64,000 nt of DNA from Escherichia coli (GTDB lineage Bacteria; Pseudomonadota; Gammaproteobacteria; Enterobacterales; Enterobacteriaceae). The translations under genes were made by a program, and so were the position numbers. The DNA lies in the NCBI RefSeq assembly GCF_048403405.1, contig NZ_CP183129.1. One strand, 5' to 3'. Shown here piece by piece: positions 28,928 through 29,403 of the stretch (position 1 is the first letter of the stretch; every line of letters starts with the position of its first letter). A model generated the notes under the pieces. It did no database searches. It was given only the letters and a program-made list of their open reading frames with translations, and had not been told where the DNA came from.

Positions 28928-29403
28928 TATTTACGTTCCCTGAAATAAAAGAGACCCTACGCTTTCCAAAAGGAATACGTATATAGAGAAATATAAGGTG
29001 TGCACTTTCGAATTTTTAATCCAACTTCAGCAGGCCGATGGATAGTATCCCGCTGCATAATATGAGTAAATCCGCTGATTTCCTGGAACGTGAGGAATAT
29101 AACAATAGTGCCGTTTTTAACCAAATATCGTAAAAAATATTAGATATAATTCACGCTGACTCATAAGCCACAAATATAAATAACCTTGCTGCAAAACATG
29201 TGCGGCAGTTAAACATTCACAACATCATTAAATAATGATTTTTTATTCACTGCATTTATTTTTCCCATCAATATGTGCCTTACACCGCAAAATTTATCCT
29301 TCACTCTGCCTTATATTGTCACGACTTCACGACATATCCGCGCTCATCACAAAACCGCCCCGCCGTTACAATTAACTATAATATTTTTTCATGGAGTCCA
29401 ATA

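Follow-up and report, generated by a model that had tools for sequence, protein, structure and literature searches.

Two separable promoter regions, probably autonomous, meet in the gap between a RafY-family porin gene and frvA in Escherichia coli

We analysed the intergenic gap that separates a RafY-family porin gene (minus strand) from frvA (plus strand) on the E. coli chromosome. This gap probably consists of two autonomous promoter regions that are juxtaposed at a variable AT-rich junction. The porin half (28928 to approximately 29190) accompanies the porin wherever the porin occurs, and the frvA half (approximately 29217-29403) accompanies frvABXR. The two genes face away from the gap. 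Hence, for either gene to be expressed, a promoter of its own must be present within the gap. The preliminary description of the region had placed the promoters of both genes here, and cross-genus footprinting agrees with it, since one conserved promoter-like architecture was found beside each gene. The same description saw the gap as a single integrated divergent control region, a view that we abandon: the two halves are separable and each occurs alone in other genomes, the sequence between them is variable, and the candidate site for the regulator FrvR lies on the frvA side only. Overall, the gap looks like ordinary promoter biology, i.e. two ordinary promoter regions back to back, and not like one unusual element.

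The gene-free gap spans positions 28928-29403, between the porin gene at 27533-28927 (minus) and frvA at 29404-29850 (plus), as established from E. coli TUM14771, whose DNA matches at 100%, and from the RefSeq annotation of that strain. It had been located correctly, but its length is 476 bp rather than the 475 bp initially reported. The other general properties ascribed to it were retrieved by our analysis. The gap is AT-rich (35.9% GC versus 50.4% in the window, i.e. the whole stretch of 64,000 nucleotides that was analysed), and just 50 of the 6353 sliding windows of 476 bp have a lower GC content. Only one of the 52 intergenic gaps of the window (median 97 bp) exceeds it in length, and among the eight divergent ones it ranks first. 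It is also enriched in A/T tracts, with six runs of at least 5 nucleotides versus 2.1 expected from shuffles (P ~0.01).

We compared the gap with approximately 5400 E. coli genomes and 35 or so loci of other Enterobacteriaceae; these sequences share descent and the conservation counts given here do not represent independent events. Porin, gap and frv are found together in around 1377 of 5426 E. coli genomes, and porin and gap without frvABXR in around 1170 of the 5426. Most of the remaining genomes, K-12 included, lack the porin and have a 300-bp gap between rhaM and frvA, which has only its frvA-proximal part in common with the gap of the window. For example, BL21 and O157:H7 carry both modules, and UPEC and ST131 carry the porin only. 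The porin half is seen with no frv in B2 E. coli, Klebsiella and Kluyvera. Examples of the frvA half with no porin come from K-12, Salmonella and Klebsiella huaxiensis. In other genera, an XRE/cupin regulator and azlCD lie between the halves, or either half is found beside unrelated genes. The porin half is nearly invariant among the carriers of the porin, even where frv is gone.

The junction between the two modules (29185-29273) is AT-rich (approximately 29% GC) and variable, with a hypervariable patch in the alignment at approximately 29185-29210. It overlaps a 38-bp stretch (29250-29287) that is missing from the genomes lacking frv; all such genomes listed have 421 bp for query positions 1-459. 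The deletion took the CRP-like box of frvA and left the porin half intact. We considered that the gap could hold a remnant of the XRE/cupin-azlCD cassette that lies between the halves in Citrobacter and Kluyvera, and rejected this because the alignments show no trace of it. Two further inverted repeats were observed in the gap, one at 29189-29208, within the hypervariable patch, and one at 29221-29242, which is kept only within Escherichia.

The composition of the gap raises the question of silencing by H-NS. The whole region might mainly be bound by H-NS, with filaments over the 29%-GC core that keep both genes off unless an anti-silencer intervenes. The low GC content (35.9% in the gap, close to 29% in 29111-29273) and the enrichment in A/T tracts go in this direction, as does the stretch ACGATATTT, which resembles the published high-affinity motif of H-NS at 7 out of 10 positions. 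Yet, the locus is ancestral in Enterobacteriaceae and not a recent acquisition. The elements that are conserved have the appearance of ordinary promoters and operators, and conservation is lowest in the core, where the AT content is highest. Besides, a literature search on frvA regulation, transcription starts, CRP, H-NS, transcript mapping or binding at this locus found nothing, H-NS data included. We thus regard silencing as the main role of the gap as possible but doubtful. AT-richness is in itself no more than compatible with H-NS silencing, which is in turn compatible with, and not exclusive of, the two promoter regions that we favour.

In the porin half, the elements conserved across genera probably form a catabolite-controlled promoter on the minus strand, with a box at class I distance and weak -35 and -10 hexamers. 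The box, TGTTATATTCCTCACG (29089-29104, minus), has two mismatches to the CRP core TGTGA-N6-TCACA. Downstream of it lies the distal promoter candidate, P2 (29042-29070, minus), with -35 TTTACT (29065-29070), a 17-nt spacer and -10 TACTAT (29042-29047). If this TACTAT is the -10, the centre of the box is at -61.5 from the predicted start of P2, at approximately 29035, and the porin would have a 5' UTR of approximately 108 nt. The TTTAC and TA.T of P2 are invariant in an alignment of 15 sequences from multiple genera, and the spacing (box, 18 nt, hexamer, 17 nt, hexamer) is preserved in most orthologues. The motif TGTTA-N6-TCAC, located 177-242 nt before the start codon, is shared by 29 porin loci from at least 10 genera, all of them orthologues, since the more distant paralogues contribute none. 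Among the 27 loci where rhaM was detected, all have the box except two of Klebsiella (L022 and L027) and one of Raoultella (L028), regardless of the upstream gene. Core matches of this quality are no rarer than chance would have it (25 in the window for 27 expected). Since matches with two or three mismatches are that frequent, the case for the CRP-type boxes on both sides of the gap is one of conservation and position. Further upstream, the AT-rich block at 29108-29150 (minus; TATATCTAATATTTTTTACGATATTTGGTTAAAAACGGCAC in the sense of the porin) is conserved only in Escherichia and Citrobacter, as indicated by the alignment and by blastn (65-78% identity to Citrobacter loci).

A second, proximal sigma-70-like promoter candidate, P1 (TTAAAA-18-TATATT, 28990-29019, minus), matches the consensus at 9 of 12 positions and has its predicted start at approximately 28983. 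This start falls at a hairpin in the porin leader, UACGUAUUCC-UUUU-GGAAAGCGUA (28958-28981, minus), predicted by RNAfold and backed by covariation. Counted from the start codon of the porin, the hairpin is approximately 30-55 nt upstream. A transcript from P1 is predicted to begin with it, and it would also be contained in the longer leader produced from P2. Over 20 orthologues, pairing is found in 67.5% of the cells, versus 36-48% in slid controls, and the covariation score is 0.45, versus at most 0.25 in the controls, with changes on both sides in 9 of the 10 pairs; the hairpin was specified by hand for this test. RNAalifold returned no structure for the porin leader, whose upstream parts are not alignable.

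The presence of P1 leads to another interpretation of the porin side, where the 16-mer is the site of a regulator other than CRP and transcription starts mainly at the hairpin. The left half-site is TGTTA, and not TGTGA, in every orthologue and the spacer is partly conserved too, so that the box could be the target of another protein. Furthermore, P1 is the sole porin-side site that passes the consensus scan, whereas P2 is below its threshold, and AT-rich -10-like elements are found just upstream of the hairpin in several other genera. However, the invariant positions of the 16-mer are those of the CRP core (TGT.A-N6-TCAC), and its right half, TCACG, is identical to that of a match at 23310-23325 in the rhaS-rhaB gap of the window, presumably the CRP site of rhaBAD. 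The distance from the 16-mer to the hexamers of P2 is fixed, while those to P1 and the hairpin vary among orthologues, from 113 to approximately 145 nt. Finally, the neighbourhoods of the orthologue loci contain no candidate regulator gene that is linked to the porin in every genus. This interpretation is therefore unlikely, and we retain a CRP-type box acting on P2 as the most plausible arrangement, in which P1 may serve as a second promoter.

The porin itself (464 aa) is assigned to the RafY glycoporins by the Pfam family Porin_8 'glycoporin RafY' (E = 3e-154, residues 104-464). By sequence, it is a chromosomal paralogue of the rafY gene found in the plasmid rafA-rafB-rafD-rafY cluster, with which it shares 79% amino acid identity. 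Its name in O157:H7 is rafY2 (PMC4809568). The orthologue next to rhaM in Klebsiella and Raoultella is preceded by genes for a GH36 alpha-galactosidase, a LacY-type permease and an acetyltransferase. The comparison of the gap with rafD and with the plasmid rafD-rafY spacer found neither a remnant of the former nor homology to the latter. Because the adjacency to rhaM is so conserved, we considered a control of the porin by RhaS or RhaR. The footprint of these regulators at rhaBAD and rhaSR spans -32 to -81. A CRP-type box at -61.5 leaves no space for it and no such repeat is conserved, which led us to reject this control.

The frvA half has a different layout, on the plus strand, in which a conserved -10 is not accompanied by a -35. 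The -10 hexamer, TACAAT (29367-29372), has invariant T1, A2 and T6, and predicts a start at approximately 29379, while the position of the -35 reads TCATCA. The Shine-Dalgarno sequence GGAG (29393-29396; GGA invariant in the alignment) precedes the start codon at 29404. Upstream of the -10 is an inverted repeat, ATATTGTCAC-GACTTC-ACGACATAT (29313-29337, plus). The repeat is centred near -53.5 from the predicted start, and its TGTCAC-N6-GTGACATAT is at approximately -62 to -42. A search for palindromes had been suggested in the preliminary description; this repeat is present on the frvA side only and is conserved across genera. Of the 27 loci besides the window that contain the region, 25 have the motif TGTCA-N8/9-nGACATAT in front of frvA, as does the window itself, and the two exceptions (C. 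braakii L026 and JJ1886 L007) are variants by one base. In the 934 kb of sequence compared, it occurs at frvA only. One locus, L095, has the repeat with extended and perfect arms of 16 nt.

Further upstream, a CRP-like box, TGTGCCTTACACCGCA (29274-29289, plus), has three mismatches to the CRP core, and its TGTG ... C.CA is invariant in 17 sequences. Class I CRP sites are usually centred near -61.5, -72, -82 or -93. The centre of this box is at approximately -97.5, half a helical turn off these positions. The accessible part of a genomic CRP SELEX study of K-12, main text and supplements, makes no mention of frvA (PMC3105977). The distance between the start of the box and the TGTCA of the repeat is 43 nt in the window and in most relatives, 42 nt in two and 33 nt in another two; the spacing of 43 nt is also present in Salmonella, in Klebsiella and in loci where FrvR is only 49% identical. 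The complete layout (box, 27 nt, repeat, 32 nt, -10) is gap-free in 21 sequences, including those with the 49%-identical FrvR and those where the upstream gene is pfk or azlD, and the -10 comes exactly 32 nt after the repeat in 21 out of 21. The 135-bp frvA-side region of the window allele is approximately 76% identical to that of K-12, compared with 97-99% for the frvA gene, and all the frvA-side motifs survive this divergence.

These elements suggest an activator-dependent sigma-70 promoter, as anticipated in the preliminary description, with the conserved repeat just upstream as candidate FrvR operator. FrvR would most likely bind this repeat and recruit RNA polymerase. An alternative places the promoter further upstream, with TATATT (29312-29317) as -10 and a start near 29324, so that the repeat would lie over the start as the operator of an FrvR repressor. 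The distance from the CRP-like box to TATATT suits a class II site (centre at approximately -42), and most genera have an nAnnnT hexamer straight before TGTCA. But this hexamer is better read as belonging to the repeat, of which it is the outer portion (ATATGTCAC/GTGACATAT), and in the two loci where box and repeat are 10 bp closer the class II geometry is broken. The gap-free 32 nt between the repeat and the invariant TA...T favour the downstream -10, and the regulators of the fold class to which FrvR belongs are activators. We find the upstream promoter rather improbable and keep TACAAT as the -10 of frvA.

FrvR is encoded by the last gene (32372-34120) of the frvABXR operon (29404-34120, plus), after those for EIIA, EIIBC and an M42 aminopeptidase, according to RefSeq and Pfam. 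Its predicted model (pLDDT 84.6) has two winged-helix units at the N-terminus, where Pfam finds HTH_11 at residues 5-60 and a second HTH at 79-116 just under the gathering score. Foldseek searches with the model gave as best PDB matches, in addition to EIIA proteins, MgaSpn (5WAY), AtxA (4R6I) and an Mga-family regulator (3SQN), over some 480-496 alignment columns (E from 3e-10 to 1e-8, TM 0.34-0.44). The helical region at 139-343 superposes on these three structures inside the longer alignments. The Pfam PRD model does not match FrvR, even at E ≤ 10, and H279 is the only invariant histidine of the helical region. It is followed by an alpha/beta domain (349-440), putatively EIIB-like, and by a C-terminal PTS_EIIA_2 domain (residues 455-560 in Pfam) with structural matches to PtsN, EIIA-Mtl and CmtB. 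In sequence searches against PDB, the single FrvR sequence retrieved nothing and its profile gave only weak matches to EIIA and AcpB. FrvR is thus predicted from its model to combine two winged HTH, PRD-like helical domains, an EIIB-like domain and EIIA, like Mga, AtxA and MtlR, and by analogy with this class its activity may be controlled by PTS phosphorylation. MtlR, LicR, ManR, Mga and AtxA activate transcription from binding sites upstream of the -35. Since FrvR has an Mga/AtxA-like predicted fold and an EIIA domain, it is likely to be an activator at the frvA repeat. The earlier suggestion that FrvR may act in the gap is reasonable as an argument by association, where every frvA locus compared carries frvR and provides no frvR-less control.

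We then consider what else the gap might contain. It had been described as devoid of ORFs, which is true in a useful sense: mechanical ORFs of 25-55 aa are present, but they are annotated in none of the genomes listed and none is intact outside Escherichia in the orthologous loci compared, and the one of 46 aa is already disrupted in O157:H7. A scan of 27000-31000 with the Rfam covariance models (E ≤ 1) matched no RNA family. It is very improbable that the gap conceals a small gene or sRNA such as the 31-aa ORF at 29038-29133 (plus; MDSIP.HNMSKSADFLEREEYNNSAVFN), which is unbroken in every Escherichia variant checked, but overlaps, on the other strand, P2 and the CRP-type box of the porin, where the sequence is near-invariant anyway, meets a stop after 4 codons in its Citrobacter homologue, and, like the rest of the gap, has no annotation, Rfam match or rafD remnant to its credit. 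Consensus scans of the gap showed no enrichment over shuffles for terminators or for sigma-70 promoters (two promoter-like sites versus 1.9); the latter scan overlooks both P2 and the frvA promoter and finds only the proximal porin candidate.

These results have some implications. Tentatively, the frvA half may provide the first operator/promoter architecture for FrvR. Independently of this, the RafY-type porin beside rhaM may represent a fixed 'anchor' gene under catabolite control, with the gap next to it as an exchange junction. If the former is true, FrvR would be a Gram-negative, PTS-controlled activator of the Mga/AtxA/MtlR kind with a single target. In E. coli, frv has stood as an unexplained 'fructose-like' PTS since the 1990s, and this long-cryptic operon would gain a testable regulatory switch. 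The modules exchanged beside the porin would be the frv PTS, GH36 with LacY, GH32, and GH4 with EIIC. Exchange at the gap would explain the sharp boundary at the start codon of frvA and the promoter alleles of E. coli that diverge by 24%. Together, the candidate operator and promoter and the fold assignment of FrvR turn a 'cryptic operon' into a list of features that can be tested at the bench. Reporter and ChIP studies should not take the gap as one unit, since the porin and frv halves have separate histories.

Several known systems resemble parts of this arrangement. Like rhaSR-rhaBAD and malEp-malKp, which are integrated divergent regions, the locus has two divergent sugar units and one long gap with CRP-type boxes. 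Unlike them, it has no site common to both sides, its halves occur independently and its middle is the least conserved part. The plasmid raffinose operon rafRABD-rafY encodes a porin of the same Pfam family, whereas the E. coli porin stands alone beside rhaM, without raf genes; the region upstream of it is unlike the rafD-rafY spacer, and the 16-mer of its CRP-type box is absent upstream of plasmid rafY. The porin-leader hairpin, with its compensatory changes and its predicted location at the beginning of P1 transcripts, recalls the 5'-terminal stabilising hairpins of the ompA type in the mRNAs of outer-membrane proteins, a resemblance of position only. On the porin side, the comparison with class I CRP promoters of the lac P1 type (-61.5) must account for the TGTTA half-site of all orthologues and for a start and a CRP dependence that are predicted; the centre of TGT.A-N6-TCAC is nevertheless 49.5 nt upstream of the first base of the -10-like hexamer, the -35 is weak and this geometry is kept across genera. 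On the frvA side, the closest comparison is with promoters controlled by MtlR, LicR, ManR, Mga or AtxA, such as PmtlA of Bacillus subtilis. The differences are that frv has a Gram-negative host, that the catabolite site of frvA is CRP-like and not a cre of CcpA, that the MtlR site of B. subtilis differs from the frvA repeat, and that FrvR has no Pfam PRD match and a single invariant histidine in its helical region. The likeness is in the organisation: FrvR is encoded with a PTS operon and has the predicted domains of these regulators, and frvA has an imperfect inverted repeat immediately before a -35 that is poor or absent, with a catabolite-control site nearby.

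The intergenic region between the porin gene and frvA was initially described as long and AT-rich, with A/T tracts and no ORF, and these properties were all confirmed. It spans 476 bp (28928-29403) with a GC content of 35.9%, against 50.4% for the window, and just 0.8% of 476-bp windows have a lower GC. It ranks second in length among the 52 intergenic gaps in the window and is the longest of the eight divergent ones. Runs of at least five A or T are about three times more frequent than expected from shuffling. Mechanical ORFs have only 25-55 aa, are unannotated in every listed genome and are unconserved outside Escherichia, and an Rfam search of the gap returned no RNA family. 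Silencing of the AT-rich core by H-NS would be compatible with this composition and fits all our observations on the gap. The junction part also contains an AT-rich palindrome (ATCATTA-AA-TAATGAT, 29221-29242), present in all gap-carrying Escherichia variants and not seen in other genera.

The segment 27400-29900 is 100% identical to E. coli strain TUM14771, and we took the local gene order from the RefSeq annotation of the latter: rhaBADM (+ strand), a 'carbohydrate porin' (27533-28927, − strand), frvA (29404-29850, + strand), frvB, frvX, frvR (32372-34120, + strand, the last gene of frvABXR), a decayed yiiG and fdhD. Pfam places the porin among the RafY-family glycoporins (Porin_8, E = 3e-154), and it is 79% identical to rafY from a plasmid rafA-rafB-rafD-rafY cluster; the homologue in O157:H7 was named rafY2 (PMC4809568). 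The convergent rhaM and porin genes are 40 bp apart, and a hairpin in this spacer, GCGGTGC-(13 nt)-GCACCGC (27499-27526), is probably a bidirectional terminator common to both genes; K-12 has a different hairpin 3' of rhaM. The neighbouring rhaA-rhaD spacer varies between strains: 184 bp in the window (26160-26343), 450 bp in a K-12-like genome (L002, 1234-1683) and 82 bp in KE40 (L003, 4863-4944). Further downstream, a CRP consensus core with no mismatches, TGTGACATTTGTCACA, lies within the 5' end of fdhD (35693-35708), ~40 bp from the fdhD-fdoG divergent gap. The lowest GC of the window (~33% near 44200) is found in 41891-44815, between yiiE and fabY, where a transposase gene and a truncated hypothetical gene, with gaps of 695 and 415 bp on either side, probably form an inserted islet.

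We scanned the porin protein against one genome per bacterial species, which returned 80 loci. The convergent rhaM-porin pair recurs in Kluyvera, Citrobacter, Klebsiella, Raoultella, Trabulsiella, Enterobacter, Pseudocitrobacter and Superficieibacter. The porin is directly divergent from frvA, across gaps of 476-556 bp, in another Escherichia, in Trabulsiella and in two Enterobacter species. A cassette of an XRE/cupin regulator, azlC and azlD separates the two halves in C. braakii, C. amalonaticus and several Kluyvera. The frv operon also occurs where the porin does not: after azlCD in Salmonella, and divergent from pfk in Klebsiella huaxiensis and two uncultured lineages. Positions 29026-29188 match the Citrobacter spacer upstream of the porin, and positions 29272-29399 match the spacer upstream of frvA, which in those genomes lies 1.7 kb from the first. 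The gap is therefore a composite of two juxtaposed modules. It does not qualify as an integrated bidirectional control region, because the halves share no sites and are inherited separately. The genes upstream of the rhaM-adjacent porin vary by genus (L022, L023, L027, L028, L032, L036 and L026, positions 1-4000): a GH36 alpha-galactosidase together with an acetyltransferase and a LacY-type permease, GH32 alongside an inulin-fructotransferase-like beta-helix protein, GH4 and a PTS EIIC, AzlCD plus an XRE/cupin regulator, or frvABXR. Carbohydrate modules appear to have been exchanged at the porin slot.

Three arrangements coexist among 5426 complete E. coli genomes. Arrangement A, as in the window, has porin, gap and frvABXR (~1377 genomes, including BL21 and O157:H7). 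Arrangement B (K-12 type) lacks the porin and has a 300-bp rhaM-frvA gap, of which only about the last 190 bp are common to the window, at ~75% identity. Arrangement C (e.g. UTI89, JJ1886, KE40) keeps porin and gap; frvABXR is deleted from ~29393 to ~34198 at a 4-bp TCAT microhomology, and the gap then abuts the yiiG 3' end. The figure of ~1170 such genomes was obtained by subtracting the 1377 with arrangement A from the 2547 that hold the gap; the operon is cleanly deleted in roughly one-fifth of complete genomes. The yiiG gene (DUF3829 family, 34176-34818) is a frameshifted and N-terminally truncated pseudogene, also in frv-less genomes, where the predicted frvA promoter now points into its 3' end. 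Among porin carriers, 28928 to ~29181 is almost invariant and ~29185-29210 is hypervariable. All listed arrangement C genomes miss 38 bp (29250-29287), including almost all of the CRP-like box of frvA, which fits the decay of a promoter left without a gene to drive. The 300 nt at the 5' end of the porin gene (28628-28927) form two E. coli haplogroups ~9% apart, and the ~250 non-coding bp just upstream (28928-29181) differ by at most 2% between the same strains (L006, L007).

In the porin half, the alignment of 15 genomes from several genera has few invariant columns: TGTTA..T..CTCAC, then TTTAC, TA.T and the ribosome-binding region. On the − strand of the window these are a CRP-type 16-mer (29104-29089), 18 nt, a putative -35 TTTACT (29070-29065), 17 nt, and a putative -10 TACTAT (29047-29042). 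The 16-mer, TGTTA-N6-TCAC, occurs in 29 orthologue loci, 177-242 nt 5' of the start codon; 27 are confirmed as rhaM-adjacent, and the identity of the upstream gene makes no difference. It is missing from Klebsiella L022 and L027 and Raoultella L028 (the three loci confirmed as rhaM-adjacent in which other genes immediately precede the porin), from Klebsiella L029 and from every more distant paralogue compared. Its invariant positions coincide with the CRP core, and its right half, TCACG, is identical to that of a match in the rhaS-rhaB gap (23310-23325), which we take to be the rhaBAD CRP site. With two mismatches the box is not statistically remarkable alone, and its left half is invariantly TGTTA whereas CRP prefers TGTGA. 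If TACTAT is the -10, the box is centred at -61.5, the classic class I CRP position, and transcription would start near 29035, giving a leader of ~108 nt. This leader contains a hairpin (28981-28958, − strand) with compensatory changes across genera: 67.5% of cells pair on the given structure, against 36-48% with partners slid, and covariation scores 0.45, with controls reaching 0.25 at most. The sole site passing the sigma-70 scan, TTAAAA-18-TATATT (29019-28990, − strand), has its predicted start at the hairpin base, hence a second promoter yielding a 5'-hairpin mRNA is possible. Unlike the spacing of the distal hexamers, that between this site and the 16-mer is not constant across genera.

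Upstream of frvA, we compared 21 sequences (E. coli A-type and K-12-type alleles, Citrobacter, Kluyvera, Trabulsiella, Enterobacter, Salmonella and Klebsiella), including two operons in which FrvR shows just 49% identity. One architecture is common to all 21, on the + strand: a CRP-like box, (T/C)GTG-N8-C(A/G)CA (29274-29289); 27 nt (26 in two, 17 in two); an inverted repeat, TGTCA-N8/9-nGACATAT (29313-29337); exactly 32 nt, gap-free in every sequence; a -10 hexamer, TA...T (29367-29372; TACAAT, TAAAAT, TACTAT or TACACT); and 27-32 nt including the Shine-Dalgarno sequence GGAG (29393-29396) before the start codon. The -35 position reads TCAnnn, hence the predicted promoter is without a -35. 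We rejected the A/T-rich hexamer just before TGTCA as a -10, because it falls within the repeat in one distant locus, where the arms reach 16 nt and match perfectly. The CRP-like box has three mismatches, is not statistically remarkable alone, and its centre (~-97.5) is off the usual CRP phasing. The repeat precedes frvA in the window; of the 27 other loci containing the region, 25 have it as well and two (C. braakii L026, JJ1886 L007) have one-base variants. It is found nowhere else in the 934 kb searched. The 135 bp before frvA (29269-29403) are only ~76% identical between K-12 and A-type alleles, while the first 300 nt of the gene (29404-29703) are 97-99% identical (99.0% for BL21 versus K-12). 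All motifs survive this divergence, which works as a within-species footprint in these alignments. The boundary at the start codon is sharp (L002, L004), which may reflect ancient recombination at this point or import of the allele. As for the initial claim that the gap holds the promoters of both genes, each side has a conserved predicted layout, but the sigma-70 consensus scan of the gap gave no enrichment.

FrvR has Pfam matches to HTH_11, a second HTH and PTS_EIIA_2, and none to PRD, even at E ≤ 10. Its AlphaFold2 model (28 homologues, mean pLDDT 84.6) has two winged helices, a helical region (139-343), an alpha/beta domain (349-440) and an EIIA domain. Foldseek against the PDB ranked first MgaSpn (5WAY, E = 3e-10), AtxA (4R6I) and an Enterococcus Mga-family regulator (3SQN), over ~480-496 alignment columns, and the C-terminus matched EIIA-Ntr and EIIA-Mtl proteins. 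Hence, the modelled fold is similar to that of PRD-containing regulators and, like MtlR, LicR and ManR, includes an additional EIIA domain. Members of this class activate transcription from sites upstream of the -35, under the control of PTS phosphorylation. By analogy, such an activator would be expected to occupy the position of the repeat, which spans ~-62 to -42 in a promoter lacking a -35. The suggestion that FrvR acts in the gap is thus plausible on the frvA side, given the candidate repeat and the activator-like fold, but within the gap the repeat was found on that side only.

We propose that the two halves would act independently: the porin would be under catabolite control via CRP at -61.5, with a structured leader in its mRNA, and frvABXR would be activated by FrvR, possibly assisted by the CRP-like box from ~-97.5. 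A literature search found no start-site, CRP-binding or FrvR-binding data for the locus, and neither the candidate FrvR operator nor the predicted porin promoter appears to have been described before, although both are of well-known kinds. The porin half resembles a class I CRP promoter and its leader hairpin an OMP-type leader hairpin, while the frvA half resembles a promoter under a PTS-controlled activator.
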